Shown: positions 491-30,397 of the stretch, one piece after another
Position numbering within the stretch: position 1 is the first letter of the stretch
How the letters are laid out: every line of letters starts with the position of its first letter
Source of the DNA: Candidatus Iainarchaeum sp.
GTDB taxonomy: Archaea > Iainarchaeota > Iainarchaeia > Iainarchaeales > JACQJH01
DNA length: 32,000 nucleotides
Reading direction: 5' to 3'
Assembly (NCBI GenBank): GCA_016205145.1
Contig: JACQJH010000002.1
Location: forward strand, 480,001-512,000
Notes under the pieces: model-generated
Told to the model about the DNA's origin: nothing
The model's input: the letters and a program-made list of their open reading frames with translations, nothing else
Databases searched by the model: none
Translations under genes and position numbers: made by a program

Positions 491-548
491 AGCAGATGGG
501 TATTGCAACGGCAATACCCGTCGTCGCTCCACGCAGCCGAAACTGCGT
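491..548 (+). repeat. Modular hairpin repeat unit (linker gcagatgg, H1, linker cgtcgtcg-ctcc, H2)
   Basis: H1 is GGGTATTGC aacg GCAATACCC (498-519). H2 is ACGCAG ccgaaa CTGCGT (531-548). The same linkers and H1 recur at 13056-13090 and 30270-30358, and H2 recurs at 6568-6585 and 30363-30380. Confidence 0.85.
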
Positions 549-583
549 AAAGTTAAAAACATCTATCATGGACTTCTTGTACT

Positions 584-612
584 GCCGGCTTTCCGGCTTG
601 TTTTGCTTTTTT
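584..612 (+). terminator. Terminator-like hairpin plus T-rich tract between truD and the GT4 gene
   Basis: GCCGG cttt CCGGC (584-597) is followed by ttgttttgctttttt (598-612). It sits only about 11 nt before the ATG at 624, so it could also act on the GT4 leader. Confidence 0.35.
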
Positions 613-623
613 GAGGGAAATGG

Positions 624-1586
624 ATGCTGCCTTGGGCGCTGCTGTTCGCGGTTTCGTTTGTTCTTGCGGCAATCGCTGTTTCGGTTGTCGCAAAATTCAA
701 CGCGAAAAGGAACATTGTCGGCGTTGACATAAACAAGCGTGACCAGGCAATGGTGCCTGAAAGCACTGGCATAGCCTTGCTTCCCGTGCTTTTCGCGGTT
801 TCGTTTCTTTTCCTTGCCAAGCCGCTTGGCGGAAACATCTGGGCATGGCTTTTAACCATGGGCGCATTCACGGGGATCGGATTTGCCGGCGATTTCAGCC
901 AGCGCGTCCTGAACAGGGAAATTCCATGGACTGTGAGGGCAGCCGCCATCGCTTTTGTGTCCTTGGCGTTCGCATTTTTTTATTCGCAGGAATTCGATCC
1001 CTGGCCGTTGTGGCTGGTTTTGTTTTCGCTTTACATTGCAGGCATTGCCTCTTTCCAGAACACTTTCGCGGGCCTGAACGGCTGGGAAGTTGGTTCGGGC
1101 TTCATCATTTCAGTTTTTGTCGCCTTGCTGCTTGCTCCGACAAGGCTTTTCTGGCCGGCGATTGCCTTGAGCGGCGCGATTCTGGGCCTGCTGTTTTTCA
1201 ACAGGTTTCCGGCAAGGGTTTTTCCCGGCGACAGCGGAACCCTGCTCATGGGCTCGGCGATGGCGTCCCTGCTTTTGATGTCCCAGGACCTGGCGATAAT
1301 CGTTCCCGGATTCCTGTTCTTTTTGCCGCACGCGATCGACTTTTATGTCATAAAGCTTGGAACGAACCGCGGGGACGCGACGCAGAAAAAAGCCAAGCCG
1401 TATTCAGTGGGCTTTGACGGAAAGCTTTCAGTGCCGGGCAACGGAAAATCGGGCCTCGACTTCGCCAAAGTCATCATCCGCGCATTCGGCCCGCTGGAAG
1501 AATGGAAAATCGTCGCGATAATCTGGTTTGTGGTGGCGGCAAACTGCGCGTTCTGGTTCTACGTTTTTTCCCGCATCATACTGTGA
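624..1586 (+). CDS. Glycosyltransferase family 4 (MraY/WecA/AglH-like polyprenyl-phosphate sugar-1-phosphate transferase)
   Basis: Polytopic membrane protein. Has DINKRDQAMVPESTGIAL and FPGDSGTLLMGSAMA motifs typical of the MraY/WecA superfamily. ATG at 624 is preceded by GAGGG (613-617). Confidence 0.7.
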   Translation: MLPWALLFAVSFVLAAIAVSVVAKFNAKRNIVGVDINKRDQAMVPESTGIALLPVLFAVSFLFLAKPLGGNIWAWLLTMGAFTGIGFAGDFSQRVLNREIPWTVRAAAIAFVSLAFAFFYSQEFDPWPLWLVLFSLYIAGIASFQNTFAGLNGWEVGSGFIISVFVALLLAPTRLFWPAIALSGAILGLLFFNRFPARVFPGDSGTLLMGSAMASLLLMSQDLAIIVPGFLFFLPHAIDFYVIKLGTNRGDATQKKAKPYSVGFDGKLSVPGNGKSGLDFAKVIIRAFGPLEEWKIVAIIWFVVAANCAFWFYVFSRIIL

Positions 1587-2548
1587 GTGCCTGCAATGGC
1601 GGCGAATGCCAGGCTTAAAAGCGTCGGAATGACTATCCTGACAACGCCGAAAACCACCATGATTGCGCCGATTTCCGCGAATGAAAGCATTGCATTTGAA
1701 AACGCGGGAACGGAAAGGTAAGCGAAGCCTGCCGCCTCCACCAGGCCGATGCCGCGCGGCAGGAACGGCGCCCGTTCAAGGATCGAGGCGATGACAAAAA
1801 GCGCGATCGCCGAGGCAAGCGGAATTGAAACGCCCACTGCAAAAAAGCTGTACAGCAAGGCGAGGAATTCAAAAAAAAGCGAGAGGGCGCTGAGCAAAAA
1901 AACCCATACAAAAAGCCGCAGGCTTATGCGCTTCAGGTAAGCAGAATAATTCGAAAAAAAATCCGCAGCCCTGGACAGCAGGGAAAATCTTTTGGATGCG
2001 TGCCTGAAAAAAGCCGCGATCGCCCGGCCGAAGCGCTCGTTAAGCGGCAGCAGGAACAAGGCGCTTGCCGCCGCGACCATGAAAAAGCCGGACAGCAGGG
2101 CAAAAAACACGAATGGCGGAAGGCTTGAATTGAAAAGCAGGGAAAACGAGACCAGGAGGGAGAGCACGAAGATTGCAAAGAATTTCATGCCCTTGACAAG
2201 CATTGACGCTGCAAGGGAATCCCTGAATGGAACGCCGAAATGCCTTTTCAGCTGCACCGAACGCAGGTAATCGGAGCCCACCTGAACCGGTGAAACCGAA
2301 CCGTAGACGGACGCACAGCCCAAAAAAAAGGCTTTACGGAAAGGGGTTTTGGAGCCGTTTTTTACAAGAATGGCCCACGAAAAAACCCAGATAACCACGC
2401 TGGCGAGGAAAAAAACTGCCGCGGCAGCGAAAAAAAGCGGGTTTGTTGCCTGCAATTCGCCAAAAGCGTTGGTTAGGGTTGAAAGCACGCCCAAAAGCGC
2501 GAAAAAGACCAAAACAACCAGGACTGCCTTGCCAAAACCGCTCTTCAA
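1559..2548 (-). CDS. Polytopic membrane protein, flippase-like / LPG-synthase-TM (UPF0104)-like
   Basis: 329 aa with about 8 hydrophobic helices and family-like composition. Apparent TTG start at 2548 overlaps the upstream stop (TTGA, 2545-2548). Its 3' end overlaps the convergent GT4 gene by 28 nt. Confidence 0.45.
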   Translation of the reverse strand: MKSGFGKAVLVVLVFFALLGVLSTLTNAFGELQATNPLFFAAAAVFFLASVVIWVFSWAILVKNGSKTPFRKAFFLGCASVYGSVSPVQVGSDYLRSVQLKRHFGVPFRDSLAASMLVKGMKFFAIFVLSLLVSFSLLFNSSLPPFVFFALLSGFFMVAAASALFLLPLNERFGRAIAAFFRHASKRFSLLSRAADFFSNYSAYLKRISLRLFVWVFLLSALSLFFEFLALLYSFFAVGVSIPLASAIALFVIASILERAPFLPRGIGLVEAAGFAYLSVPAFSNAMLSFAEIGAIMVVFGVVRIVIPTLLSLAFAAIAGTHSMMREKT

Positions 2549-3192
2549 GCAGCGCCACCAAGCCTTGAACCAACAGCGTTTGTCTTGTCGATTATTTCCT
2601 GCGCATTGGAAAACATTGCAAGCAGCACCAGCCTTGAAAGTTCCGGAATTTCCCGCTCATTCGAAGGCAATATCAGAATCTGGTTACCCGAAACCACAAC
2701 TGCTGGATTTTGCCTTGACGCGTCCGGAAAGTCTATGACAATCCTCACGCTCCTGCCATCAGACAGCATTGCGGAGCATTCGGCAGGGGAAACGGTTTTG
2801 CTTGAATTGAAATCGCCGAAATTTGAAATGCATTCCTTTAAGGCGCCGGTTCCGGTGAAAACCTGCAAAAGCTGGGTCGTGTCCTTCCTGTTCCCGGACA
2901 GCACAACAATGAATGCATTGAGGCCGTTGCTCATGAACGTGTTAACGCCGCCGGCTTCAGCGAGCTTGGGCGAAACGACAAACGAGACGCTTTCCCCGGC
3001 TTTGCCGAAAAACGCGTTCGGGTCAACCTCATTCGAAACAAAGGCCACTTTTTCCCCGCTTTTAAGCATGCCAAAAGCCGAATACTTCGGCGCAAACAAT
3101 CCCGCATACACGGCAGCGCCCGCGACAATGAAGACAAGCAGCAGAATCGAGGCAAGATTGAACTTCGAAAAAACACTGGACTTTTCAGGCAT
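2545..3192 (-). CDS. Hypothetical N-terminally membrane-anchored protein
   Basis: Start moved to ATG at 3192 (MPEKSSVFSKFNLASILLLVFIVAGAAVYAG, one TM helix). The longer listed ORF (to 3279) only translates the hairpin repeat at 3225-3280 (NQPDETGF). Confidence 0.55.
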   Translation of the reverse strand: MPEKSSVFSKFNLASILLLVFIVAGAAVYAGLFAPKYSAFGMLKSGEKVAFVSNEVDPNAFFGKAGESVSFVVSPKLAEAGGVNTFMSNGLNAFIVVLSGNRKDTTQLLQVFTGTGALKECISNFGDFNSSKTVSPAECSAMLSDGRSVRIVIDFPDASRQNPAVVVSGNQILILPSNEREIPELSRLVLLAMFSNAQEIIDKTNAVGSRLGGAA

Positions 3193-3224
3193 AAAAAACA
3201 ACTCATACTGCAAAAAGATTAAAA

Positions 3225-3280
3225 AGCCGGTTTCGTCCGGCTGGTTCGACGGCAGGTATTGCTTACGCAATACCTGCAAG
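3225..3280 (-). repeat. Modular hairpin repeat unit, inverse orientation (H1 plus H3)
   Basis: On the plus strand: AGCCGG tttcgt CCGGCT (3225-3242) and CAGGTATTGC ttac GCAATACCTG (3253-3276). The reverse complement of 3225-3250 is identical over 26 nt to 13087-13112. Confidence 0.85.
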
Positions 3281-3328
3281 CATTAAAGATTTCGGGGGTT
3301 TGCAGGGGGTGAAACTCCGGCGGAAGCT

Positions 3329-3395
3329 GGGAAAGAAAAAATAAAAGAAAAAGAAAAGAAAAAAAAGAAAGGAAAAAGGGAAACAAGGTTTCCCC
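3329..3395 (-). terminator. Hairpin plus long multi-oligo(T) terminator of the S-layer-like gene
   Basis: In minus sense, 12 nt after the stop comes GGGAAAC ctt GTTTCCC (3378-3394). An approx 50-nt almost pure pyrimidine tract follows, with runs of T5, T8, T4, T5, T4 and T6. Confidence 0.6.
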
Positions 3396-3407
3396 TTTTC
3401 AGACTAC

Positions 3408-6227
3408 TTACGCCAACAGGCCGTCAAGGGCGCTTATGAGTTCCTGTGCTGCGGCAGCGGTGTCGTCAGCGGTGTAACCCGCGGCAACTATGTCGCCGTT
3501 GTTCAGGAGCTCTGCGACCTTGTCGCCTCTTGCCGTCAGGGCATCTTCCAAGGTTGTGCCGTCGTCAAGCTGGAGGCCTTTTGCCAAGGTGTTGACCTTG
3601 TAGCCGCCAACTATGATGGCGTTTCCGCTCGGATTGAAGCCTGCGTCGGTGTAGACAAGGTTTCCGGTCTTCACGATTTCGTTGTATTTTGCCGGAACTG
3701 CCACAGCTCCGCCAGCTCCGCCAGCCACTGTGTAGTTGACCTTGTCAACCGTGACTGTCGTGCCGTCGTCTGTCTTGGCTGTTGCGCCCTCTAAGACTCC
3801 GGCCAGCGTTGCGCCGCCCGAAACCTCTTCAGTCGTGTCCAGGCTTTCAACGGTCCAATAGGACTTCATCCTGGAGTTCGGAAGCACGAATGAAAGCTCC
3901 CTGCTTGCCAGTTCGACCTTTATTCCGTTGTCGTCGTATCCTTTCGTGAAGTTCGTTGAGCTGCCAGTGTATTCGCTCAGCGTTGTTATGGTTCTCTCTG
4001 CGTTGTAGTCTGCAGCGGTTGTCTTACCGGCGTAGTTTGTCTTGTTGTTGTTCGCCGTGTCGACTGTTCCCGCGTTTCCGCCTTCCGTGTCAATGTAGAT
4101 TGTCCACACGCCTACGCGGACATTCGGTGCATCTCCGCCGTGGTGCGGTATGGCTGTGTTCGTGTCCAGCTCCCTTATGAAGAAGACGGCTGTCTTGTAG
4201 ATTCCGCCAGCTGAACCCGCATATGTTCCGAAGTCTGCCGTGTCAGGCGCGTAGTATGAAACGCCCCTGAACGAAGCCGTCGCAACGCTTGTTTGCTGGG
4301 CCTGCGACAGGTTGTAGTCGTTCAACGAGGTTGTCACATTGTCGTTGTCGCTGACGTCTGTTCCCAGGAGGAACAGGCCGCCTGTGCTCCACTCCAATGT
4401 GTCAATGTAACCGTTGACACTGGTTGTTCCGTTTATGTCGTAACCTGCAAGGACAAGCCAAGCCGCGGAAGTCGTGGTCTTGAAGAAGTACTTGTAGGTT
4501 TTGCTGTTCTTTCCAGTTATAGTGATGAGGTTCCCGGAAGCCAGGTTGTTTATGTCACCTGTGCCGCTCCAGTTCTCGTCAGCTGTTGCGGCAGGAACAT
4601 TGTCTATTCCATACGCAAAGTTGAAGTCGCCTGTTATCTGTGCGGACGTCGAGTAGGTAACCTGGCCTGGTTCCAATATGAACCTGTTGCCGGATGTTCC
4701 CGCGCCTGAGTCGCCTTTTCCGACTGCGTAGGTGTAGTCCTGGCCTTCAAACTTCAGGTTTCCGCTGATTGGCGGCTGGCCGAGCTTGATTGCCATCGGG
4801 ATCTTGTGTTCAACGGACGACGTGTCCTTGTACTGGATTGCGCCGTATGTTGAGGATCCGCCTGAGATGTCGGCAACGTTCTGTCCCTTGAGGAACTTGA
4901 CCGTTGTCTTCTGGACACCCTGGTCGTAGAAGCCCTTGAATTTGACGTAACCTATCGGGTCAAGACCTGAGCCCTCAAGGATTCCCGCCTTGTCAACTCC
5001 CGTGGTAACATTGCCGAGAGTGTAACCTGTTGCCGTCAATGGATTTGACGCATTCCAGATTTTCGCGTTGTTTGTCACGGCTATCGCGGTGAGCGTTGTT
5101 CCTGAGGTTGTCAGGGCCGCCTGCCACGGGTAGCTTCCCGAAGTGTTGTTCGGGTCGTACGGGAACCTGTTGCCGTTCCTGATGTCAAGCCTATCAGAGC
5201 CGACAAGGAGCGTGAAGTCGTACGTTGTCGTGTTGTCAACGGTGTTCGTTCCAACTCTCTTCATTGTTACCTTTGTCTCAAGGATTGCCTTTCCGTCTGT
5301 GTCCGAGAAGACCGTGTCAATCTGGTCGTCGTTTGTCACAGACTGGACCTGGAGCTCTGTTCCGTCGGCGTCAAGCAATGCAACCTTTGCGTAGGTTGTT
5401 CCGCTTGAAGTGTAGCCGCCCCTGAGCTCAAGGGAGTAATCCTTTCCGTCCCTGCCCTTCAACGCGATCCTGTCGCCCGTCTGGTAGACCTTTTCAGCGG
5501 ATGTTGAGACAAGAACAATCTGTGTTCCTGACGTGTTGATTGAGTCCACTACGTAGGTTTTTCCGAGGAATGAGATCGGAACATAGTCGTCCGCCCCGGA
5601 ATCCGTGAAGTAAGGTATGCCCGGCGAGAAAGTAACCTGGTAGTTCAGGTCGCCTGAGCTGATGTAACCCACAAGGTCTTTTACGCTGACATTTGTGGTG
5701 TCGAACAGGGCATCAAGCTTTACGCCGATGCTTTCAACAACGGTCGTAGTGTTCGTGTCGTTGTTGATTTTTATCTGCTTCGACTCGTTCTTGAAGCTCT
5801 TGAAGTAGGCGTTTCCAACGTCGGTTCTATATTCCCACTGGCTCGAGCCGCTGTTCATGTTGGCTGTCAGCAGTTCCCTGACTCCGCCGGAAACCTTTAC
5901 TGTTCCGCCGACTGTCAAGTCAACTGACAGGTCTGAAACCGTCGCGCCTTCGCCTGAGCCTTCTCCGGCCTGGACTGTGACGTCCTTTTCAACTGTCGCG
6001 AGCTGCGCAACCCTTGCGGCTATGTTGCCTGCCCAGACAACGTCTGATGCTTTGGCTTTAGAGCCGACAGCAACGCCGACAATGGGCTGGCCCGTTGCCG
6101 TGTTGATTATATTTGATTTGCTAATCTGGCTTACAGAAACTGCTGAAACGATTGGCGCCAGAGCGCTGCCCACAAGGGCCGCACCAACACCAATGGCTGC
6201 AAGCCTTTTTACGTTAAGTCCCTTCAT
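3408..6227 (-). CDS. S-layer-like large secreted surface protein
   Basis: 939 aa from ATG 6227. Signal peptide MKGLNVKRLAAIGVGAALVGSALAPIVSA. Thr/Gly/Asn/Ser-rich with more than a dozen N-x-S/T sequons. Strong SD and strong terminator. The listed GTG at 6239 lies inside the SD. Confidence 0.65.
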   Translation of the reverse strand: MKGLNVKRLAAIGVGAALVGSALAPIVSAVSVSQISKSNIINTATGQPIVGVAVGSKAKASDVVWAGNIAARVAQLATVEKDVTVQAGEGSGEGATVSDLSVDLTVGGTVKVSGGVRELLTANMNSGSSQWEYRTDVGNAYFKSFKNESKQIKINNDTNTTTVVESIGVKLDALFDTTNVSVKDLVGYISSGDLNYQVTFSPGIPYFTDSGADDYVPISFLGKTYVVDSINTSGTQIVLVSTSAEKVYQTGDRIALKGRDGKDYSLELRGGYTSSGTTYAKVALLDADGTELQVQSVTNDDQIDTVFSDTDGKAILETKVTMKRVGTNTVDNTTTYDFTLLVGSDRLDIRNGNRFPYDPNNTSGSYPWQAALTTSGTTLTAIAVTNNAKIWNASNPLTATGYTLGNVTTGVDKAGILEGSGLDPIGYVKFKGFYDQGVQKTTVKFLKGQNVADISGGSSTYGAIQYKDTSSVEHKIPMAIKLGQPPISGNLKFEGQDYTYAVGKGDSGAGTSGNRFILEPGQVTYSTSAQITGDFNFAYGIDNVPAATADENWSGTGDINNLASGNLITITGKNSKTYKYFFKTTTSAAWLVLAGYDINGTTSVNGYIDTLEWSTGGLFLLGTDVSDNDNVTTSLNDYNLSQAQQTSVATASFRGVSYYAPDTADFGTYAGSAGGIYKTAVFFIRELDTNTAIPHHGGDAPNVRVGVWTIYIDTEGGNAGTVDTANNNKTNYAGKTTAADYNAERTITTLSEYTGSSTNFTKGYDDNGIKVELASRELSFVLPNSRMKSYWTVESLDTTEEVSGGATLAGVLEGATAKTDDGTTVTVDKVNYTVAGGAGGAVAVPAKYNEIVKTGNLVYTDAGFNPSGNAIIVGGYKVNTLAKGLQLDDGTTLEDALTARGDKVAELLNNGDIVAAGYTADDTAAAAQELISALDGLLA

Positions 6228-6235
6228 GATTTTGT

Positions 6236-6242: not shown

Positions 6243-6525
6243 ACAATCTTACGAAGGATATTGTATGTATGAATAAAAAACAAGCCCGGCAACCCGCCCC
6301 CAAAACCACTGAAGGCAAAGGTCAGTCAGACCATTCAATACTTATCAAGTCAACTTATTTAAATACCTTTCCGTCCCAAAAAAAAGCTTAAAAAGCGCTT
6401 ATTTTGGGAAAACAAGCCCAAAATTTACTGCTTTTGCAGAAGACCTGTTCGTCAATTTACGAACCATGTACCAGCAGGGACTGGCCTCTCGCACACCCAC
6501 TGACCCCCGAAATCGTTAATACGCC

Positions 6526-6586
6526 TACTCGGCGTATTGCGCTAGCAATACGCCTTGGTTTCGCTCCGCGCAGCCGAAACTGCGCC
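6526..6586 (+). repeat. Modular hairpin repeat unit (linker tactcgg, H1, linker ccttggtttcg-ctcc, H2)
   Basis: GGCGTATTGC gcta GCAATACGCC (6531-6554). GCGCAG ccgaaa CTGCGC (6568-6585) ends 2 nt from the stop codon complement at 6588-6590. Confidence 0.85.
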
Positions 6587-6587
6587 G

Positions 6588-7235: not shown

Positions 7236-7258
7236 AATTGAGTTTGGGCGGCAAAATG

Positions 7259-7266
7259 TTTTAAAA
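7259..7266 (-). promoter_or_regulatory. TATA-like box (TTTTAAAA) for the wHTH gene, leaderless geometry
   Basis: 23 nt separate the box from ATG 7235. Confidence 0.4.
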
Positions 7267-7267
7267 C

Positions 7268-7565
7268 GCAGGGGCTTTCGCCCCTTGCACGCTCCCAAAA
7301 ACAACCTGGCTTACTCGGCTTATTGCAATAGCAACAAGCCTTGGTTTCGGACCCGGCGTGCGAGCAAAAGCGAACGCAGGGATTGCACCCCTTGCAAACC
7401 CCGAAAGCTTTAACGGAATACTCGGCATATTGCGTAGCAATATGCCTTGGTTTCGGCACACGCGATCGAAAACGCGTCCGGACGAAACCGGCTCCGAGCA
7501 AAGCGAGGCGGCGCTATGCGAGCAAAGCGAGCATAGTGCGTCGGCACACCCGCTCGAAAGCGGGT
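7268..7565. repeat. Approx 300-nt array of at least 8 GC-rich hairpin modules
   Basis: H6 7268-7288. tactcgg-H1 7312-7340. H6-like 7376-7395. tactcgg-H1 7419-7446. ACGCG..CGCGT 7460-7477. Truncated H3 7478-7493. GCGCTATGC..GCATAGTGC 7511-7539. ACCCGCT cgaa AGCGGGT 7548-7565. The motif gcgagcaaa(a)gcga occurs three times. Confidence 0.85.
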
Positions 7566-7574
7566 TGGAAAAGC

Positions 7575-7582
7575 AATAAATA
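7575..7582 (+). promoter_or_regulatory. TATA-like box (AATAAATA) for the small membrane protein gene
   Basis: 22 nt upstream of ATG 7605. Confidence 0.4.
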
Positions 7583-7604
7583 CTTTGCCGCACAATTCTT
7601 TTGC

Positions 7605-10884: not shown

Positions 10885-10936
10885 AAAAACCAGAACAAAA
10901 GAATTGCAACAAAAACAGTATTTTAAAGGAATATGT

Positions 10937-11139
10937 AGCCGTCACGCCCGGCTAGTGCGAACTAAGGCTTATCATGGCAAAATCGCGATTTTGCCATGTG
11001 CCCGGAATCTTGGGATTCCGGTGCATGCCGCTGCAATAAGCCGAGTAAGCTTTTTGCAAATAAGTGGCGTTGCAACAGCAACGCCACGCAAGGGGCGTGC
11101 GAGGGGCGAAAGCCCCTGCCTGCGCGCTGTTGCGCGTGA
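10937..11139. repeat. Approx 200-nt nested array of hairpin modules
   Basis: H3-like 10937-10953. Outer stem GGCTTAT (10966-10972) pairs with ATAAGCC (11036-11042) and encloses the 26-nt palindrome H5 (10973-10998) and H4 (11002-11021). Inverse tactcgg at 11041-11047. H1 11064-11087. Inverse H6 11099-11119. Inverse H7 11120-11138. Confidence 0.85.
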
Positions 11140-11183
11140 CAAACCAAACAATAGATGAGACTCGCGAAGGAAGTAGCAAGATT

Positions 11184-13033: not shown

Positions 13034-13055
13034 GGTGCCGGGCACCCAACACAAA

Positions 13056-13112
13056 GCAGATGGGTATTGCAATGGCAATACCCGTCGTCGAACCAGCCGG
13101 ACGAAACCGGCT
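13056..13112 (+). repeat. Modular hairpin repeat unit (linker gcagatgg, H1, linker cgtcgtcg-aacc, H3)
   Basis: GGGTATTGC aatg GCAATACCC (13062-13083). AGCCGG acgaaa CCGGCT (13095-13112) ends immediately before the stop codon complement at 13113-13115. Confidence 0.85.
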
Positions 13113-13328
13113 TCAGCCGCGCTTTGAGCCTATTATGGACGCAGATGAAAGTATTGCCGCCGACAGCACAACAAAGTTCGCTTCGGGCGAGAAACCCAGG
13201 AGCTTTGCCGCAATCGAGATTATCGCAAGGTTTATGCCGAATGAAACCAGTCCGACGACCAGAAGCACGAACGCAGTCAAAACCACAAACGCAAGAGTTC
13301 CGACGCCAAGAGAAGCCCAGAAGCCCAT
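13113..13328 (-). CDS. Small hydrophobic protein (2 predicted TM helices)
   Basis: 71 aa from ATG 13328. SD-like GGGGTGG (13334-13340) lies 5 nt upstream. No recognisable family. Confidence 0.45.
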   Translation of the reverse strand: MGFWASLGVGTLAFVVLTAFVLLVVGLVSFGINLAIISIAAKLLGFSPEANFVVLSAAILSSASIIGSKRG

Positions 13329-14998: not shown

Positions 14999-15724
14999 TC
15001 AGAGTATCATGTGCGCCAGGTAAAAGTTTATTTCGGAGTCGCCGATCGGATACGAGATTTTCATCGGCGAATCGGTCTTGAGCTCAAGCAGGATTTTTTT
15101 GTCCGCGTCGGCCTCGCGCACGATGTTCTGCAAAAAATTCAGGGAATACTTGCTTTGGGTGTCGGCCGAGCTTTTCACGGAAACGCTTTTCCCGTTCGAC
15201 TGGTCGCTGCGCATAGTTCCCTGGCTGCCCTTCGCCTCGATTGAAAGCTTGCCTTTTTTCACGTTTATGACGGCTGCGCTGCCGAACAAGGCAGCGTCTT
15301 TCAGGACTTCCCTGAAAATGCGCGCATTGATCTCGATGTGCGAGTCGAAGCCCACCTGCGGAACCTTCGGCTCTTCCTCGGAAACGTCTATGAGCGGCAG
15401 GCTGAATTTTCTCACCAGGTCGCCTTCAAAGGTCAAAGCCATCTCGTTTTCCGTAAGGTCGAGAACCATCCTGTCGCCGGGCAGTGCGCGCAGCATTATT
15501 TTGGACAGCTCGGAAATGTCGACTCCTGCAAAAGCCGGCTCGACAGCATACCTGTCAAAAATCTTTTTGTCAAGGAAAAGGTCGACCAGCACAATCTGGC
15601 TTGGGTCGATTGCCCTGAACAAAACGCCCTTGTCGGAAAAATGGAAATTGCCCTCCGAAATGAACGATGAAATCGCCTGCACCGCCTTCTGCCACGAATC
15701 AAGCTTTTTGAGTTCAATCGCCAT
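14999..15724 (-). CDS. pcn: DNA polymerase sliding clamp PCNA, paralog A
   Basis: 241 aa. Has AIDPSQIVLVDL, VRKFSLPLIDVS and SKYSLNFLQNIV. The C-terminus FYLAHMIL is a variant of the usual LAPRI ending. Confidence 0.8.
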   Translation of the reverse strand: MAIELKKLDSWQKAVQAISSFISEGNFHFSDKGVLFRAIDPSQIVLVDLFLDKKIFDRYAVEPAFAGVDISELSKIMLRALPGDRMVLDLTENEMALTFEGDLVRKFSLPLIDVSEEEPKVPQVGFDSHIEINARIFREVLKDAALFGSAAVINVKKGKLSIEAKGSQGTMRSDQSNGKSVSVKSSADTQSKYSLNFLQNIVREADADKKILLELKTDSPMKISYPIGDSEINFYLAHMIL

Positions 15725-19481: not shown

Positions 19482-20297
19482 TTAATAGCTGTATTTTTTG
19501 CTTGGAAATTTCCCGCTTTTTACCTGATTGCCGAATTTTTCCGCTGCGCCGGAAATCTTTCCCCCGAGGTTGTCGAACCGCTTCACGAATTTCGGCTGGA
19601 AATCCGGCAGCAGGCCGAGAATGTCGTGCAGCACCAAAACCTGTCCATCACAGTGCCTTCCCGCGCCGATGCCGATTGTCGGAATGGCAAGGCAGTTAGT
19701 GATTTTTTTTGCGAGGCCGGACGGAACGCATTCCAGAACAAGCGCGAAACAGCCTTCCCTTTCAAGGCAGAGCGCGTCCTGCATAATTTTTTCCGCTTCT
19801 TCGGCATTCCTGCCTTTCACGGAAAAGTTTTCCGCTGTCTGCGGAGTCAGGCCGAGATGGCCGATGACCGGAATGCCGGCATCGCGGATGGCTTTTGCTA
19901 TGCCATCGGAAAAGCCTTCAATTTTCACGCAATGGCAGCCTGCTTCCGAGAATTTTTTCGCGTTCTCGCCTGCAAGGTTTGAGTTCGTGAAAGAGCCGAA
20001 CGGCATGTCCCCGATCACAAAGGATTTTTTGCACGCCCTTGCGACAGCCGCGGAATGCCGGAGCATTGTTTCCATTGAAACCGTCGAGGTTTTCGGCTCG
20101 CCGTAAACCACGTTGTTCAGGGAATCTCCGACAAGCAGGGCGTCAACCTTCGCGTCGACAAGCCGTGCAAAGGCATGGTCGTAGCAGGCAAGCACGGAGA
20201 TTTTTTCGCCGGACTTCTTCATTTCGGCAAACTTTTCGGAAATGTGCATGAAAAGCTTGTGCTGGAACAATTTGAAAAAGCTATTTGTCCCGCTCAC
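19482..20297 (-). CDS. panB: 3-methyl-2-oxobutanoate hydroxymethyltransferase
   Basis: Has ISVLACYD...LLVGDSLNNVVYG...DMPFGS...VKIEG...GHLGLTPQ. GTG 20297 overlaps the PCNA-B stop (GTGA). The alternative start is ATG 20249. Confidence 0.85.
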   Translation of the reverse strand: MSGTNSFFKLFQHKLFMHISEKFAEMKKSGEKISVLACYDHAFARLVDAKVDALLVGDSLNNVVYGEPKTSTVSMETMLRHSAAVARACKKSFVIGDMPFGSFTNSNLAGENAKKFSEAGCHCVKIEGFSDGIAKAIRDAGIPVIGHLGLTPQTAENFSVKGRNAEEAEKIMQDALCLEREGCFALVLECVPSGLAKKITNCLAIPTIGIGAGRHCDGQVLVLHDILGLLPDFQPKFVKRFDNLGGKISGAAEKFGNQVKSGKFPSKKYSY

Positions 20298-21040
20298 TCT
20301 GATTCTATGCGCGGCGCAAGGAAATAGGTTATGTCGGCCTTGCCGACCTTGTAGTTGACCTGGATGGGCGCGTTTGTTTTGAGGAAAACCTTGACTTCGG
20401 TGTCAGAGGAAGCGGTTTTGAGCATGTCGGAAAGGTAGTCCAACGGGAACATGCTTTTAGCCTCGTCTTTCACTTTCATTTCGGTTATCGCCTTGTCGTC
20501 CTTCTGGGTTTCGCTGTTCAGTTCGCCCTTGCTTGAATGCGCCCTGACAAAAAACTTTTTGTTCTCGATGCCCAACGAAACGTGCGTTGAAATGAGCGCG
20601 GAATCCTTGAGCGCGTCCTGCAGGACCGAAGCCTTCATTGAAAGTTCCGCGTCGAAGTCTATGCGCGGACTCGGCAATTCGGAAGCGGAAATGTCTATCA
20701 AAGGCATGGAAAATTTTCTCACGGAAGAGCCCTTGAACGTGACGCTCAGATAGTTCTTGTCGTCCTCCAATGCCAGGTGCAGTTCGTCGCCGGCCTTCGA
20801 CCTGGACATTATCTGGCCCAGGTAATCGAGGTCCAGGCCGAGCTTGGTTTTGCCGTCCAAATCGAATTTTTTGAAGGAATCCTTTTTGAGCGAGAAGTCG
20901 ACCATTGAAATCTGGCTTGGGTCGGTCGCCCTCAATGACAAACCATTGGCGTCGAAGATGAATTCGGCCTCGTCGATCAGGACCGCGATTGAGTCGATGC
21001 ATTTCTTGAAATCGTCGGCCTTTTCGAGCACTACGTCCAT
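20294..21040 (-). CDS. pcn: DNA polymerase sliding clamp PCNA, paralog B
   Basis: 248 aa. Has ATDPSQISMVDF, VRKFSMPLIDIS, FPLDYLSDMLK and a canonical YFLAPRIE C-terminus. Confidence 0.8.
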   Translation of the reverse strand: MDVVLEKADDFKKCIDSIAVLIDEAEFIFDANGLSLRATDPSQISMVDFSLKKDSFKKFDLDGKTKLGLDLDYLGQIMSRSKAGDELHLALEDDKNYLSVTFKGSSVRKFSMPLIDISASELPSPRIDFDAELSMKASVLQDALKDSALISTHVSLGIENKKFFVRAHSSKGELNSETQKDDKAITEMKVKDEAKSMFPLDYLSDMLKTASSDTEVKVFLKTNAPIQVNYKVGKADITYFLAPRIESE

Positions 21041-21070: not shown

Positions 21071-21116
21071 AAAGAACTTAACCTCGTGGCAAAAATCTAC
21101 CCCGCAGGCACATGCA

Positions 21117-21222
21117 TACTCGGCGTGCCGCACAGCGGCACGCCTTGGCTCCGAACCAGCCGCAGTTGCGAAGCCAGCGCCATGCAATGCATGGTGCGCG
21201 TACCAGCCGGACGAGACGGCTG
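21117..21222 (+). repeat. Hairpin module array (tactcgg-H1 variant, H8, H3 variant)
   Basis: GGCGTGCCGC aca GCGGCACGCC (21122-21144). CCATGCA a TGCATGG (21180-21194). CAGCCG gacgaga CGGCTG (21204-21222). Lies 14 nt from the stop at 21237. Confidence 0.8.
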
Positions 21223-21236
21223 CGGACGGAAGCGGC

Positions 21237-23919: not shown

Positions 23920-23926
23920 TCTTGCT

Positions 23927-24945: not shown

Positions 24946-25006
24946 GCCAATCAGCCGATACGGTTAATCAGTTAATACAGTATACTTTATATATTTCATG
25001 CAAAAA

Positions 25007-25016
25007 TTTATTAATA
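25007..25016 (+). promoter_or_regulatory. TATA-like box (TTTATTAATA) for the DUF373 gene
   Basis: 24 nt upstream of ATG 25041. Confidence 0.4.
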
Positions 25017-25040
25017 AGCGCGTTGGCTTTTTGTGATAGC

Positions 25041-26261
25041 ATGGCTGAAGAAAAAATCCTCGTCATCTGCGTTGACCGCGACGACGACCTTGGAAGGAAA
25101 ACCGGGATACAGGGGCCGGTCATTGGCAGGGACGCAAACATCAAGGCCGCGACAAGGCTCATTCTCAAGGACCCCGAAGAAAACGATTCCAACACAATGT
25201 TTGCGGCCGTGAAAAAATTCGACGAGGTAAGGAAATCAGCCGCTGCATGCGAGGTGGTGACGCTCACGGGCTACGGCAAGGCCGGCTTCAAGTCCGACAG
25301 GATTGTGGCGCAGCAGCTTGACGCCGTGCTCGAAAAATTCCCGGCCAACGGAATAGTGCTTGTAACCGACGGCGCCGAAGACGACCAGGTCATTCCCATA
25401 CTGCAGGGCAGGGCAAGAATCATTTCAAAGGAAACAGTCATCATAAAGCAGGCGCAGGCAGTCGAATCAACGTTTTACACGATAAAAGAGGCGCTGAAAG
25501 ACCCTTTCATTGCAAGGATTGCATTCGGAATTCCCGGACTGCTGTTATTGCTTTTCGGCCTGCTCGGCAACCTCAGCTTCCAGGTCATAGCATTCATCGG
25601 CGGAACATATCTGCTGGTGAAAGGCTTCGGCATCGAGGAATGGGCCATAAGGGGATTCCACAGCGTCACTTCCTCGATTTCCGCGCAGAGAATCTCCTAT
25701 CCGCTTTACCTTTCCGTGATTTTCATTCTCGGCTTCGGCGGAATGACCGCTTTCAACAAGTTCAACGAGCTTTCGGGCATAGAGCTTGTTGCAAGGGCAG
25801 TGATCACGGCGCAGTCAACATATCTTTTCATAGCGATTTCCGCTTTGCTCATTGTCGCGGCGAAAAGCGTCGACCTCATCCACCTCAAAAAGGCGCAGCA
25901 CCTGCGCAAAATGCTTTTGTACGCGACCTCAACGCTTCTGGCGTGGTTCATACTCGACTCCGCAACACTGGTGGTGTTGGGCAGGGCCGACCTCAACTGG
26001 TTCCTGTTCAGCGTGGGCTTCAGCATGTTCCTGCTGCTGCTTGCATTCAAGCTCTCCGAGATAATGGAAGTCAACTCGAAAGTGACGAGGCTGCTCGTCG
26101 GCCTGTCTGTTTACGCGAACGACGGAAGGTGGCTGGGCAAGGTAGAAAACGTCGACCGCGAAAAGCAGGAGATACTGTTCAAGGACAACGCGTCAAAGAA
26201 AAGCGTTTCCCTGAAAAAAAAGGAATTCGAAATAACCAAGGGCAGGATCCTGATAACCTGA
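25041..26261 (+). CDS. DUF373-family archaeal membrane protein
   Basis: N-terminal soluble domain ILVICVDRDDDLGRKTGIQGPVIGRDANIKAATRLILKDPEENDSNTMFAAVK is followed by multiple TM helices. Confidence 0.6.
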   Translation: MAEEKILVICVDRDDDLGRKTGIQGPVIGRDANIKAATRLILKDPEENDSNTMFAAVKKFDEVRKSAAACEVVTLTGYGKAGFKSDRIVAQQLDAVLEKFPANGIVLVTDGAEDDQVIPILQGRARIISKETVIIKQAQAVESTFYTIKEALKDPFIARIAFGIPGLLLLLFGLLGNLSFQVIAFIGGTYLLVKGFGIEEWAIRGFHSVTSSISAQRISYPLYLSVIFILGFGGMTAFNKFNELSGIELVARAVITAQSTYLFIAISALLIVAAKSVDLIHLKKAQHLRKMLLYATSTLLAWFILDSATLVVLGRADLNWFLFSVGFSMFLLLLAFKLSEIMEVNSKVTRLLVGLSVYANDGRWLGKVENVDREKQEILFKDNASKKSVSLKKKEFEITKGRILIT

Positions 26262-26296
26262 TTCTTTCACATTGCCTGAAATTTAATACAAAAAAA

Positions 26297-26407
26297 GCAG
26301 ACGGGTATCGGGCAAGCGGAATCGTCCAACCAATCACGCGCAACAGCGCGCAGCTCCATGCGAATGAAATGAGCATGGGGCGTCGGACCAGCCGGACGAA
26401 ATCGGCT
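26297..26407 (+). repeat. Hairpin module array (gcagacgg linker, H7, H8, H3)
   Basis: CGCGC aaca GCGCG (26337-26350). CCATGC..GCATGG (26356-26378). AGCCGG acgaaa TCGGCT (26390-26407) overlaps the lonB stop complement by 1 nt. An A7 run lies at 26290-26296. Confidence 0.8.
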
Positions 26408-28350
26408 TAATGCGCGGATTTTTGGGAGACCTTTTCAATATTTACGCCGCTAATCGACGGCAGGCTTTTCAGTATTTTTTTGAGCGACAGCAGCATTGAA
26501 TCCTTTTTCCTGGATTTCTCGAAAGCGTTCGCCAGCACGTCGGACAATGTCGAAACGGAAATTATTTTTATTTTGGCGAGTTCGGCTTCAGGCAGGACTA
26601 TGTCCTCGCGGTTGGCCTTGGGCACGATGACTTCCTTGAAGCCCGCGCGGATTGCGGCGTGCACTTTTGAAGTAACGCCCCCGACGGGAAGCACTTCGCC
26701 GCGGACGGAGAGGCTGCCTGTCATTGCCAGGCTCTGCTTTACCGGAATGCCTTCAAGCGCTGAAATCACTGCCGTTGCGACGGACACCGAAGCGGAATCG
26801 CCTTCGACCCCTTCATAAGTCTGCAAAAACTGTATGTGCAGGTCGTGCTGGCTTATGTCCTTGCCGGAAATGCGCTTGATTATTGCGGAAACATTCTGCA
26901 CGGCTTCGCGCGCAATCTCCCCAAGCTTTCCGGTCGCAATGACCCGGCCCTCGGACTTTGAAGCTGCCGGCGCGATTTCGGCCTCGATCGGCAGCACAGT
27001 GCCCGCACTCCCGTCACCGGAAACTGCGAGGCCGTTGACCCTGCCGACAACCGCGCCCTCTGAAAGGTAAACTTCGTATTCGCGCTTGCTGTCGATTATC
27101 TTGTCAACCATCTGCTGTTCCAGCGTTCTTGCGGACATCTTTGCCTCGATGACGTCCTGCGCCTCGACAAGCGAATGGCTTTTCTCCTTTGCAATGTCGC
27201 CGGCCGCCCTGACAAGGCCGCCCAAATCGCGCAGTTTCAGTGTCAGCCTGACTTTCCTGTCGGCGCGCCTGCGCGCCTCGAAAATTATCAGGTCAACGGC
27301 TTCCCTTGAAAAGTGCGGAATCTTGCCGTCCTTTTTGATTTCCTGGCAGACGAACTGCACTATCTTTGACCTGTTTTCGGGCGTGTCCGGCATGTCAATG
27401 TTCATGTAAACCTCGTAGCCGTAGCCCCTGATCCTTGAACGCAGGGCGGGATGCACTTTTTCCAAATCACGGTAGTTGCCCGCCGCGACAAGCACGAAAT
27501 CGCACGGCACGGGCTCGGTTCTCGTCATGGCGCCGGAGGACATTTCGCTCTGCCCCGTAATCGCATACTTTTTTTCCTGCATGGCCGTAAGCAGTTCCTG
27601 CTGTGCCTTGTATGAAAGCGTTGCAAGCTCGTCGACAAACAATACTCCGCCCGAAGCCTTGTGAATGAGGCCCGGCTCGACGCGCAGATGCGGGGGCGTG
27701 CCGAGGCCGCCTGACTGTAACGGGTCGTGGCGGACGTCGCCGAGCAGTGAGCCGGCCCTCGCGCCCGTTCCTTCAAAAAACGGCGCAAGCTTTTTGCCTG
27801 CATTGTCAACCAACAGCTTGGGCGTCCTTTTTTCCTCGCGGCTCCTCATCTGGTTGCCGACTGCAAAGCCCACTATCAGGAAGCCGCCCAGAATCATCAT
27901 CGCAGCCACGATCACGTCAGGCGCCCACTTGAAAAAATAGACGACCCAGACAATCAAAAACCAGCCCAGCGGAAACAGCATTGAAACGAGCCTGAAATTG
28001 TCGTCCGCGTGCTGTGCTTCAATCCTTTCCTTGTTCAAAATTTTCTGGCCCTCGCCCGCAGGAACCGGCCTCACCTTGGGATTGTTGGGATCAGTGTCGT
28101 TCGGGTAAATGAGTATGTCGCTCAGCTTCTGCACGGGCAGGACTTCCGACATTGCCAATGCAAGCATGCTCTTGCCTGTTCCGGGCTCGCCCACCAGAAG
28201 AACGTTTCTTTTCTGCGCGGCCGCCTTTCGGATGATGTCAACGCTCGAATCCTGGCCGATGACCTGGTTTATGGTCTTGTCGGAAACCGGGATTTCGGCT
28301 GTGGACCGGAAATTGAGGAAATCGGCCTTGTGCGGGGAAGACTTAGGCAT
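26407..28350 (-). CDS. lonB: Archaeal membrane-bound Lon protease (LonB)
   Basis: 647 aa from ATG 28350. Has Walker A GEPGTGKS, two TM helices inserted in the AAA+ module ([32 protein letters not shown]) and the protease motif EGDSAS. The listed 104-aa N-terminal extension looks non-coding. Confidence 0.85.
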
Positions 28351-28372
28351 TAAAAGAGTTAGCCAAAAAAAC

Positions 28373-28382
28373 ATTAATAAAT
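28373..28382 (-). promoter_or_regulatory. TATA-like box (ATTTATTAAT) for lonB
   Basis: 22 nt upstream of ATG 28350. Confidence 0.4.
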
Positions 28383-28399
28383 CAATCGCAGGCCCGGCG

Positions 28400-28487
28400 A
28401 AAAAACCGGAAAAATACGGCAAAACGCGAAGGCAAAAAAAGCGGAAAAACAGCCGCAAAAAAAAACAGGGCGGATGCGGGTAAAAAA
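28400..28487 (+). promoter_or_regulatory. Strand-asymmetric phased A-tracts in the lonB / rnz divergent spacer
   Basis: A6 28400-28405, A5 28410-28414, A4 28421-28424, A7 28434-28440, A5 28445-28449, A9 28457-28465, A6 28482-28487. They are separated by short G/C blocks. Confidence 0.5.
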
Positions 28488-28504
28488 GTCTCAAGGGTTT
28501 TTGA

Positions 28505-29413
28505 ATGAATGCCAAAATAACCGTTCTGGGCACGAGCTGTTCTAATCCCACAAAGGAAAGGAACCTTTCAAGCGTCTGCCTCGAATTTGCAGGCAAGACG
28601 CTTTTGTTCGACTGCCCGGAGGGAACGCAGAGGCAGATGATGCTGGCAGGCGCGTCATACATGTCCGTCGACTATGTTTTCATCAGCCACTTCCACGCCG
28701 ACCACGTGCTCGGCCTTCCCGGAATGCTGGCAACAATGAGCATGCAGGGCAGGGACTGGCCGTTGCACGTCTTCGGGCCGCACGGCATTGAAAGGCAGAT
28801 GGAAAAAGTGCTGAGCCTCGGCCTGCTGAAGCAGGGCTTTGAAATAATCTGCCACGAAGCGAAAAACGGCGGGATTCTCGCTGAAAAGGATTTCACCATC
28901 GAAGCTGTCGGGTTAAGGCATGAAGTGCAGTGCTTCGGCTTCGTTTTCAGGGAAAAAAACAAGAGCGGCGAATTCCAGAGGCAATGGGCGGAAAAGCTCG
29001 GCATACCGGAAGGGCCGTTGTGGAGCAAACTGCAGAAAGGCGAAAACGCCGAGGCGAACGGAAAAACTTTCAGGCCCGAAGACGTGATGGACTATTCGAA
29101 GGGAAGGAAGGGAAGGAAAATCTCCGTCATCATGGACACTTTGCCGGACGAAAAATATTTCCAGGCGATAATGGATTCCGACCTTTTGATTCACGAGTCA
29201 AGCTTTTTGCAGAAGCATGCGGAAAGGGCGAAGGAAACGAAGCACTCCACTGCAAAGCAGGCCGCGGAAGTCGCAAAAAAAACCAATGCGAAAAAACTCC
29301 TGCTTTTGCACATCAGCCCGCGCTACCGCGGCGAAAAGGAAATGGAAGAGGAAGCGGAAAAGGTTTTCCCGCACGCGATTGTGGCGAGGGACCTCATGCA
29401 AATCGAAATCTGA
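28505..29413 (+). CDS. rnz: Ribonuclease Z (tRNA 3' endonuclease)
   Basis: Has ITVLGTS...NLSSVCLE...[13 protein letters not shown] and [14 protein letters not shown] (HxHxDH). Length about 300 aa. Confidence 0.8.
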
Positions 29414-29448
29414 ACAAAAAAAGTTTCACTTCAAGCGGAAGGCAATTG

Positions 29449-30159
29449 CTATTTCAAATTGAAGGTTTGCCCCGGCGCGAGAATGACCGGCTTTGTTTTC
29501 AGGATGCTTTTCTCTATTTTCTGCCTGAACTCCTGCGGGTCCTGCTTTATGGTCTCGAAAGTGTTGTAGTGCATCGGAATCACATAATCCGGCTTCATTG
29601 TCTTGGTCGCGCGCACAGCATCGACGCAGTCCATTGTCTCGTTGCCGCCGATGGGCAGCAATGCGACGTTCGCCTTTATCTGCGAGAAGGTGTCCAAAAG
29701 CTGGGTGTCGCCGGCATGGTAAACCGTTGTTGTGTCGTCCGAAATCAGGAAACCCATCGGATAGAATGACTGGGGGTGATGCGCGTGCACGGCTTCGATG
29801 TGAAGGCCCCTGCAATTGATTTTTTTCGCAGTGTCAATCGAGTGCATCATCGGCTTCTGGAGCGAAAGCTGGTTCAGGATGGAATCGTGCGCCACAACGC
29901 ACGCGTTCGTCGACCTTGAGAGCCTTTCCACCATCTTCGGCTCGAAATGGTCGAAATGCTCGTGCGTTATGAGTATGACATCGGCCTTTTTCACGTCTTT
30001 TTCGGCGACCGGGCACTTTACGATGCGCTTGAACTCGCTGTTATGCGCGCAGACAAAAAAAGGGTCCACAAGGACGGTCTTGCCGGAAAAGTTGAGTTTG
30101 AAAAAAGCGTGGCCCAAAAACTGTACTTTCAGCGCCAAACAAACCACACCATTAATCAT
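29449..30159 (-). CDS. Metal-dependent hydrolase, MBL fold (UPF0173-like)
   Basis: Has VQFLGHAFFKL...VLVDPF...ILITHEHFDHF...YHAGDT. The start may be a downstream TTG/GTG (30138-30147) because the TATA-like box at 30173-30182 is only 13 nt from ATG 30159. Confidence 0.65.
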   Translation of the reverse strand: MINGVVCLALKVQFLGHAFFKLNFSGKTVLVDPFFVCAHNSEFKRIVKCPVAEKDVKKADVILITHEHFDHFEPKMVERLSRSTNACVVAHDSILNQLSLQKPMMHSIDTAKKINCRGLHIEAVHAHHPQSFYPMGFLISDDTTTVYHAGDTQLLDTFSQIKANVALLPIGGNETMDCVDAVRATKTMKPDYVIPMHYNTFETIKQDPQEFRQKIEKSILKTKPVILAPGQTFNLK

Positions 30160-30209
30160 ATTGAACCGAGAGGAATATTAATACCTACTTTTCCTGCAGG
30201 CAAAAAAAA

Positions 30210-30397
30210 GCAGATGGTTACTGGGCGAATGCGACGCACCGGAACCCCAAGATTCTGGACACGTCCAAAGCAGATGGGTATTGCATCAGCAATGCCCCAG
30301 AATCCTAAGATTCTGGGCACGTCGCAAAATCCAAGATTTTGCGAAGTACCCGTCGTCGCTCCACGCAGCCGAAACTGCGTCCGGACGGAATCACCGG
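30210..30397 (+). repeat. Approx 190-nt composite hairpin array with an apparently interrupted H1-H2 unit
   Basis: gcagatgg occurs twice (30210-30217, 30270-30277). H4-like 30239-30258. H1 30276-30297. H4 30296-30317. H5 30323-30343. ccgtcgtcg linker (30349-30358 region). H2 30363-30380. H3 variant 30381-30397. Confidence 0.85.

Follow-up and report, generated by a model that had tools for sequence, protein, structure and literature searches.

A family of short hairpins, H1, whose stems change from copy to copy while their pairing is kept, recurs through a 32,000-nt stretch of the genome of the uncultured DPANN archaeon Candidatus Iainarchaeum sp. (contig JACQJH010000002.1, positions 480,001–512,000; hereafter the window). 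An initial annotation, made from the sequence alone, had described H1 as an isolated hairpin in nine copies. We find that it is instead one interchangeable module of a larger unit, consisting of H1, a spacer and a second hairpin (hp2), and that such units stand together with other small hairpins in mosaic arrays. On balance, and with moderate confidence, we take H1 to be a module of a lineage-specific family of interspersed hairpins, of the REP/BIME type or of the kind known as 'repetitive hairpin elements', in a Diapherotrites-like DPANN archaeon. DPANN archaea have among the most reduced and tightly packed of cellular genomes, and it is unexpected for such genomes that structured, covarying hairpin repeats should account for about 4% of the sequence and the greater part of the longer intergenic regions.

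H1 stems covary between copies

All nine annotated H1 hairpins are present at the positions given, with complementary arms, including the one mismatch reported for the copy at 7317–7340, which is an A.C pair. Hairpins that pair perfectly over 9 bp or more and have loops of 3–4 nt number 10 in the window, compared with 0.55 ± 0.73 (maximum 3) in 200 dinucleotide-preserving shuffles, and seven of the ten are H1 copies. H1 is 22–28 nt long with loops of 3 and 4 nt; in class-1 copies the stem is longer than first described, comprising 12 bp (GATGGGTATTGC/GCAATACCCGTC) with a T.G wobble.

Since the annotated copies had been chosen as palindromes, we retested their pairing in an unbiased manner with a pattern defined by the flanks only, TACTCGGC-N16-19-GCCTTGGYTYCG, which leaves the inner bases free. 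This pattern retrieved four copies in the window (0 expected) with four different stems, three of them perfectly complementary and one with a single A.C mismatch; among copies found in this flank-only manner, 29 of 30 cells at unconstrained stem positions are paired. The same flanks led to two further distinct copies in JGI metagenomes, both paired: the first, GGCGTGTCGC/GCGGCACGCC, contains one T.G wobble, and the second is GGCTTATTGC/GCAATAAGCC.

Alignment of 10 copies shows a standard pair in 99 of the 100 cells formed by the inner 10 H1 pairs, the A.C being the single exception, along with changes on both sides in 9 of 12 stem pairs. Half-site sequence varies between copies at 8 of 10 stem positions. 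The covariation score of H1 is 0.53, as against 0.20 ± 0.04 for shuffled alignments (none of 500 reach 0.53) and at most 0.14 for slid partners. One stem position preserves a stepwise intermediate, with T-A in eight copies, T.G in a related metagenomic contig (L051) and C-G in the copy at 21122 (w21122).

The compensatory changes on both arms claimed in the initial annotation are borne out by the flank-only copies and by the covariation score, and neither mostly unpaired stems, among the flank-defined window and JGI copies, nor chance-level compensation, in the 10 aligned copies, was seen. Shared ancestry alone is insufficient for this pattern, as had been argued, with pairing kept and not sequence. 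Selection on the palindrome had also been concluded; pairing is indeed maintained, but selection is not the sole way to maintain it, as intrastrand templated correction of a DNA hairpin would also do so.

A repeated unit in mosaic arrays

Every H1 copy lies in a non-coding stretch composed nearly entirely of small hairpins. Alignment of the copies shows that two flank classes, distinguished earlier and both present, are two subfamilies of one unit of ~60 nt, although the copy at 11064–11087 has the flanks of neither. The unit runs from a 5' flank through H1 and a semi-conserved spacer of 13–16 nt to hp2, and has no coding capacity. Class-1 H1 is flanked by AAAGCAGAT and GTCGTCG, class-2 H1 by TACTC and TTGGTTTCG, and the spacer consists of CGTCGTCG (..CGTCG..) or TTGGTTTCG, followed by NNCC. 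The hp2 module has a covarying 6-bp stem (ACGCAG, GCGCAG, ACCCGC, AGCCGG, ACGCGC or CGGCGG) and a conserved hexaloop, NCGAAA; changes on both sides are seen at five of its six pairs, with 97.6% of cells paired.

A covariance model of the unit detects at least 10 units in the window. Their 5' hairpin is H1 of class 1, H1 of class 2, H1 enlarged to a four-way junction, or some other small hairpin; H1 is replaced by CTATGC...GCATAG (7514–7536) in one unit and by CCATGC...GCATGG (~26356) in another. Other recurring modules are hp0 (GGGGC-TTTC/GAAA-GCCCC), a linker (CCCCGAAA..TTTAA), hpA (CCnGAATC-loop-GATTCnGG) and hpB (GCAAAATC-loop-GATTTTGC). Both hpA and hpB covary between copies (for hpA, CCAGAATC versus CCGGAATC), with TCGC, CCGC or ATGGC preceding AAAATC, and compensation is seen in every hairpin module of the arrays.

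In total, nine arrays occupy nine intergenic regions and ~1.26 kb (4%) of the 32 kb, with a GC content of 58%; that of the host is 52%. Within each array, all modules follow the same direction and the same order, head-to-tail on one strand. The arrays, with covariance-model scores in bits where obtained, are as follows.

489–548, plus strand: class-1 unit with flank AAAGCAGAT, H1 at 495–522 (annotated as 498–519), spacer GTCGCTCC and hp2 at 531–548 (ACGCAG-CCGAAA-CTGCGT); between the TruD 3' end and a glycosyltransferase gene; RNA fold of two hairpins, z = −5.2; 59.9 bits.
3225–3320, minus strand: class-1-like unit with an hp0-like hairpin at 3299–3320, linker CCCCCGAAATCTTTAATGCTT at 3278–3298, H1 at 3252–3277 and hp2 at 3225–3242; between the stop of the S-layer gene and the gene that follows; 64.3 bits.
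6500–6585, plus strand: class-2 unit with linker CCCCCGAAATCGTTAATACGCC, TACTCGG, H1 at 6531–6554, CCTTGGTTTCG and hp2 at 6568–6585; antisense, between the stop of a TrmB/MJ0538-like gene and the S-layer promoter; 79.1 bits.
7266–7571, plus strand: largest array, in a divergent promoter region, with hp0 at 7269–7287, a class-2 unit with H1 at 7317–7340 (one A.C), hp0b at 7377–7394, a class-2 unit with H1 at 7424–7446 and a hairpin at 7460–7477, CCGG-ACGAAA-CCGG at 7478–7491, hp3 (CTATGC-GAGCAAAGCGA-GCATAG) at 7514–7536 and hp2 at 7548–7565.
10937–11137, minus strand: array with a class-2 four-way form at 10957–11047, the annotated hairpin at 11064–11087, hp0 at 11101–11118, CGCGC-TGTT-GCGCG at 11122–11137 and an hp2-like hairpin at 10937–10953; no coding potential was found in this interval.
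13053–13112, plus strand: class-1 unit with H1 at 13059–13086 (annotated as 13062–13083) and hp2 at 13095–13112; its end adjoins the stop codon of a minus-strand gene of 71 aa.
21095–21230, plus strand: class-2 unit with a triple-compensated H1 at 21122–21144 (GGCGTGCCGC/GCGGCACGCC), a hairpin GCGCCATGC-AAT-GCATGGTGC at 21177–21199 and an hp2-like hairpin at 21205–21221; 32.5 bits.
26295–26407, plus strand: class-1 variant with flank AAGCAGACGG, CGCGC-AACA-GCGCG and CCATGC-(11 nt)-GCATGG instead of H1, spacer GGCGTCGGACC and hp2 at 26390–26407, closed by a G.T pair; extends 1 nt into the Lon stop codon; 28.5 bits.
30207–30397, plus strand: array in a divergent region, with a truncated class-1 copy at 30207–30266, a class-1 four-way unit at 30267–30380 and CCGG-ACGGAATCA-CCGG at 30381–30397.

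Decayed or variant copies at 30207–30266 and 26295–26407 had been left out of the initial annotation. Its nine copies are all real; a tenth, the class-2 four-way form at 10957–11047 on the minus strand, had been missed, and the ninth, at 30276–30297, lies where it was placed but is arm 1 of a four-way junction, not a free-standing hairpin. In the unit at 30267–30380 an outer stem (GATGGGTA/TACCCGTC) is formed, and GGGTA of the arm 1 region pairs with TACCC at 30349–30353, enclosing a short arm (TTGC-ATCA-GCAA), hpA (30296–30317) and hpB (30322–30344); hp2 follows at 30363–30380. The four-way junction is the predicted minimum free energy structure of this unit (z = −6.0). The minus-strand form at 10957–11047 has class-2 flanks, an outer stem GGCTTAT/ATAAGCC, an arm TGC-AGCG-GCA, hpA (CCGGAATC..GATTCCGG) and hpB (CATGGCAAAATC..GATTTTGCCATG). 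Four-way forms also occur in contigs of relatives: in L049/L051, whose outer stem (GAGGGTTT/AAACCCTC) is a different one and is compensated, and in L003 at the site orthologous to the simple copy at 13053–13112, where window and L003 differ by a clean 54-nt indel that is exactly hpA plus hpB.

Three side observations concern folding. The conserved loop motif GAGCAAAGCGA recurs in hairpin loops at 7490–7536 and 7350–7366 and in arm 1 of the four-way form of the L049/L051 array. The degenerate hp2 position of the unit at 21117 (21145–21165) contains GCGAAGC, and hp0 copies contain GCGAAAGC; these are the sequences of two DNA mini-hairpins of unusual stability, d(GCGAAGC) and d(GCGAAAGC), a hint that folding at the DNA level may matter. 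A long-range helix CCGAAA/TTTCGG around class-2 H1 was predicted in one copy; we rejected it, as it shows no compensation and is broken in the units at 7312 and 21117 (w7312, w21117).

Position and turnover of the arrays

The arrays lie close against their neighbours. The hp2 end is 0–2 nt from, or 1 nt into, the stop codons of opposite-strand genes at 13113, 26407 and 6588, and the L049 array stands between two tRNA-Pro genes, with an hp2 end adjoining a tRNA-Pro 3' end (3072–3078). This abutment of hp2 and stop codons could reflect a target preference or simply the use of all free space. Arrays also stop just short of BRE/TATA-like promoter elements, which are conserved in relatives. Relative to flanking genes, three arrays are co-oriented, three anti-oriented, two divergent and one convergent; seven of nine run forward on the plus strand, which is not significant, and the GC skew of the window was uninformative on replication direction. 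At least 4 T follow 1 of 8 hp2 copies, and on the reverse strand at least 5 T follow 2 of 5 class-1 units. Intrinsic termination was rejected as a role for the units, given these few T-runs, the mixed orientation to genes and the two arrays in divergent regions.

The arrays are embedded in an ordinary chromosome and not in a mobile island, because the gene order of the window is that of a distant relative (contig L052). The genes include those for both primase subunits (small and large), GINS, two PCNA paralogues, LonB, eIF2-alpha, an S-layer protein and RNA polymerase subunit L; for the primase large subunit, the nearest named relatives come from 'Candidatus Diapherotrites archaeon' metagenome-assembled genomes and are ~41% identical. 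In L052 a gene for ribosomal protein S27e stands between GINS and eIF2-alpha; it is missing at the equivalent position of the window, where a gap of ~300 nt (10885–11183) holds no credible open reading frame and is filled by hairpin modules.

Two further features of this region were noted in passing. The PCNA paralogues (14999–15724 and 20294–21040) lie within 6 kb of each other, as they do in L052, a hint that PCNA is heteromeric in this DPANN lineage. At 3330–3400, immediately past the stop of the S-layer gene, a long plus-strand purine-rich tract (T-rich on the coding strand) accompanies a GAAAAAGGGAAA/TTTCCCCTTTTC hairpin; this is probably a strong terminator of a highly expressed gene and no part of the repeat family.

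The repeats do not stem from faulty assembly, because three independent Logan assemblies of the same organism (SRR12113383–85) are 100% identical to the window over the copies that they span. Logan contigs end inside the H1 copies at 519, 7428 and 13084 (L061; L058–L060; L001–L002), since repeats break short-read graphs, and the repeats account for the breaks that occur every few kilobases in short-read assemblies of this lineage.

The family is restricted to a narrow clade. Units are present in relatives with ~80–90% protein identity to the window (contigs L003 and L049–L051, L050 included). In relatives at 45–55% identity (L052, L057) the covariance model detects no units, and the intergenic regions are short, AT-rich and promoter-like. 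A flank-anchored class-2 pattern gave 45 matches in GTDB-representative genomes, a set that holds neither the source genome nor its relatives, and each was a single chance match in an unrelated bacterium. Scanning metagenome contigs yielded three short loci, two of them distinct, and two scans of viral contigs gave no match. Used as a protein query for spurious open reading frames elsewhere, a concatenated six-frame translation of the units likewise gave no match at E ≤ 10. We found no description of such elements in the literature on Diapherotrites, Iainarchaeota and DPANN archaea. The family thus seems undescribed in this archaeal lineage, although elements of this kind are familiar from bacteria and organelles.

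Where relatives can be compared at the same site, their arrays differ. The divergent region at 7236–7604 measures 369 nt in the window versus 93 nt, with a single small hairpin, in L053–L056; after the TrmB/MJ0538-like gene, the window has a class-2 unit and L055 has different modules. At 30207–30380, a truncated class-1 copy stands directly upstream of a full one. Some features travel together: the unit at 7312 and that of L050 share linker type, a T-A stem variant, the spacer GGACCC and the hp2 stem GGCG. Others are recombined, as in L051, which has the stem type of the unit at 21117 with the spacer and hp2 of the unit at 7419 (w7419). Sister lineages with and without the family, and simple and four-way forms at one orthologous site, offer a natural experiment on the origin, spread and maintenance of REP-like elements.

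Candidate origins and known systems

The reading that we prefer, a lineage-specific family of interspersed hairpins, would account for these features in the following manner. Units and small hairpins (hp0, hp3) would be strung head-to-tail and occupy whatever intergenic space is free, whether directly after stop codons, directly upstream of core promoters or between tRNA genes. Because arrays differ at the same sites between close relatives, units are probably inserted, duplicated and recombined, so that the family spreads and its arrays are reshuffled; we infer this mobility wholly from the presence and absence of units. Stem sequence drifts while pairing is kept, probably because the folded, single-stranded hairpin is the functional or recognised form, either as DNA handled by a hairpin-specific enzyme or as RNA in flanking transcripts. 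Possible benefits would include propagation at the level of the element and, at the level of the host, protection of transcript 3' ends or insulation.

Several observations weigh against this reading. We found no transposase, mobilising gene, RAYT, tnpA/tnpB or integrase in the 32-kb window, which was the extent of the search. Target-site duplications, terminal inverted repeats and a conserved target were also not found: the unit ends, AAAGCAG... and ...CTGCGT or CCGGCT, are not inverted repeats of each other, and no flank is duplicated at eight unit boundaries, with few comparisons of filled and empty sites. The H1 sample is small, ~13 distinct copies from one 32-kb window and a few short contigs. 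The acting strand is not marked clearly either. Non-Watson-Crick cells on the forward strand amount to ~5 G.T versus ~2 A.C, a difference in favour of that strand that is not significant (the G.T cells are at the class-1 foot, in the L051 stem, in four-way arm 1 and in two hp2 closing pairs), and in all four tests the predicted RNA fold of the reverse strand, where a UUCG loop closes the hp2 stem, is at least as stable. RNA and single-stranded DNA as acting forms cannot be separated on these data. Finally, the segment 13002–13112, a unit plus the primase promoter, is identical at 110 of 111 positions to its orthologue in L003 (5432–5597), at P ~4e-12 given an identity of 76% at 4-fold degenerate sites in the genes on either side; for the remaining intergenic regions of these 6.8 kb, identity is 79–95%. 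This is unlike decaying selfish DNA and points to purifying selection on individual copies, hence a host function, or to ongoing homogenisation.

The main rival explanation, which we regard as a serious though distinctly less probable one, is that the units are cis-acting RNA hairpins that serve the host in 3' or 5' untranslated regions, as exonuclease blocks, end or processing signals, or insulators, with stems held paired by selection on RNA folding and the hp2 loop NCGAAA (UUUCGN on the other strand) as a feature recognised by protein or RNA. The near-identity of the orthologous copy, against 76% at neutral sites, is its best support. Also consistent with it are the G.U-type intermediates, the units directly after stop codons, the conserved hp2 loop on a variable stem, and the reverse strand, where hp2 closes on a UUCG tetraloop and class-1 units are then followed by CUGCUUU(U) runs; REPs are thought to act in this way in bacteria (PMC3733652). 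However, orientation is mixed, and no gene 3' end is present in the divergent promoter regions that contain the two largest arrays. Relatives at 45–55% identity, and even one at 80% at the same site, do without the units, and a T-run follows a minority of units only.

A further reading, possible but on the doubtful side, is that the units are not passive repeats but substrates of a dedicated hairpin-recognising system, either an archaeal counterpart of REP-RAYT acting on single-stranded DNA or a protein that reads the hp2 loop in RNA. In the REP-RAYT-like case, new pairs of hairpins would insert into existing hairpins and yield four-way junctions; in the RNA case, transcript ends would be defined by the arrays, in a genome that has hardly any intergenic DNA to spare. 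If such a system exists, the near-perfect conservation of the orthologous copy at 24% neutral divergence would reflect a function at the level of the host.

Neutral maintenance of the palindromes is less probable again. Here the DNA hairpin or cruciform would template its own repair, through intrastrand template switching or mismatch correction, changes being copied from one arm to the other with no selection, a known mutational mechanism of quasi-palindromes. Double changes of the transversion type, which have no wobble path (G-C to T-A to A-T; C-G to G-C), are indeed common, and mismatched intermediates are nearly absent (one A.C in 100 cells). On the other hand, G.T intermediates exist, and this mechanism does not explain why the unpaired parts (flanks, spacer, hp2 loop) are conserved, why the orthologous copy is 99% conserved, or how the family arose and spread.

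We think it improbable that the units are multicopy, independently transcribed small structured RNAs with a two-hairpin or cloverleaf-like four-way fold, despite their well-defined covarying structure, very negative folding z-scores, fixed unit boundaries and, before some class-2 units, a CGAAA plus TTTAA motif resembling an archaeal BRE/TATA. At one unit per ~3 kb, they are much too closely spaced to be RNA genes. The promoter-like motif is missing from most copies and transcription from it would start inside H1; it was rejected as a promoter of class-2 units, being present in only ~3 of 7 copies. Terminators are not consistent, and the arrays differ between close relatives. Rfam gave no match on either strand at gathering thresholds and one irrelevant match at E up to 5 (a fungal snoRNA, E = 3), and ARAGORN found no tRNA.

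Operator sites of a dimeric protein on double-stranded DNA, one of the mechanisms offered in the initial annotation, are the least compatible with the data and most improbable: the sites are palindromic, several adjoin core promoters and one array flanks the gene of the TrmB/MJ0538-like regulator, but half-sites differ at 8 of 10 stem positions, loops of 3 versus 4 nt shift half-site spacing, wobble pairs (forward-strand mismatches are mostly G.T) and a 54-nt, two-hairpin insertion are tolerated inside the palindrome, and many copies follow stop codons far from promoters.

Among known systems, miniature inverted-repeat transposable elements were rejected, as the units are without terminal inverted repeats or target-site duplications. 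Integron attC sites are alike in that the folded single-strand structure, and not the sequence, defines the site, so that their arms covary; they were rejected because there are no R''/L''-L'/R' boxes and no GTTRRRY core, H1 is too short (attC 55–140 nt), the neighbours are syntenic housekeeping genes and no integrase is present in the window. The PATEs of haloarchaea are non-autonomous IS200/IS605-derived elements, recognised via subterminal hairpins on one DNA strand and inserted without target duplication. The units resemble them in having a hairpin near each end; however, PATEs are longer, their two end hairpins are alike and they insert next to a conserved tetranucleotide, whereas the bases 5' of class-1 units are A-rich and not conserved, and the window holds no tnpA/tnpB. 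BOX elements of Streptococcus pneumoniae are modular (boxA, repeated boxB, boxC) and intergenic, with a variable number of internal modules and stable predicted folds, but their sequences and host are different and their modules, of 45–60 nt, are not simple hairpins with covarying stems.

Likenesses are also found in the repetitive hairpin elements, double-hairpin elements and GC clusters of mitochondria in fungi, sponges and algae (PMC2800124). These are GC-rich hairpins or double hairpins that have spread into the AT-rich intergenic DNA of compact genomes, with several families per genome; their presence or absence differs in close relatives, and their mobility has been inferred without a known enzyme or target duplications (PMC2800124). 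They belong to organelle genomes and share no sequence similarity with the units, which in addition have a conserved-loop hairpin and a defined spacer. The CGTC-tagged REPs, including Rickettsia RPE-4/6 and Neisseria dRS3, have stems of 8–9 bp with a short, conserved unpaired tag (CGTC, TGTC or CCTC) at one end, loops of 4–5 nt and no known dedicated transposase (Di Nocera et al. 2013, PMC3733652); some of these families form large arrays, although they are usually head-to-head dimers, and they occur in bacteria only (PMC3733652). Class 1 has CGTC directly 3' of a 9-bp stem (CC-CGTC-GTCG), but part of this tetranucleotide can pair (GAT/GTC). Class 2 has TTGG instead of the tag, and H1 loops are 3–4 nt. 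The stems of CGTC-tagged REPs nearly always begin with two A-T pairs and end in a CCA-like tail, on the untagged side (PMC3733652), unlike H1 stems, which begin GG/CC or GGC/GCC, with GCAGAT or TACTC as the untagged flank.

The REP/BIME elements of Enterobacteria and Pseudomonas, with their GTAG-tagged REPs and the REPINs mobilised by RAYT Y1 transposases, share many features with the family described here. Like it, they are short (20–40 nt), GC-rich extragenic hairpins of high copy number, with stems that vary by subfamily yet stay paired, conserved unpaired flank motifs and a location after genes, and they form mosaic arrays with other short motifs (BIMEs) whose content differs between related genomes. 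The differences lie in the tag, as GTAG occurs here only once, by chance, in the loop at 7434–7437; in the arrangement, as units are head-to-tail in every array and not inverted doublets as in REPINs; and in the archaeal host, the second hairpin with its conserved loop, the four-way variants and the lack of a RAYT in the 32 kb searched. If a cognate enzyme or RNA-binding protein exists, the REP-type relationship between host and element would extend to Archaea.

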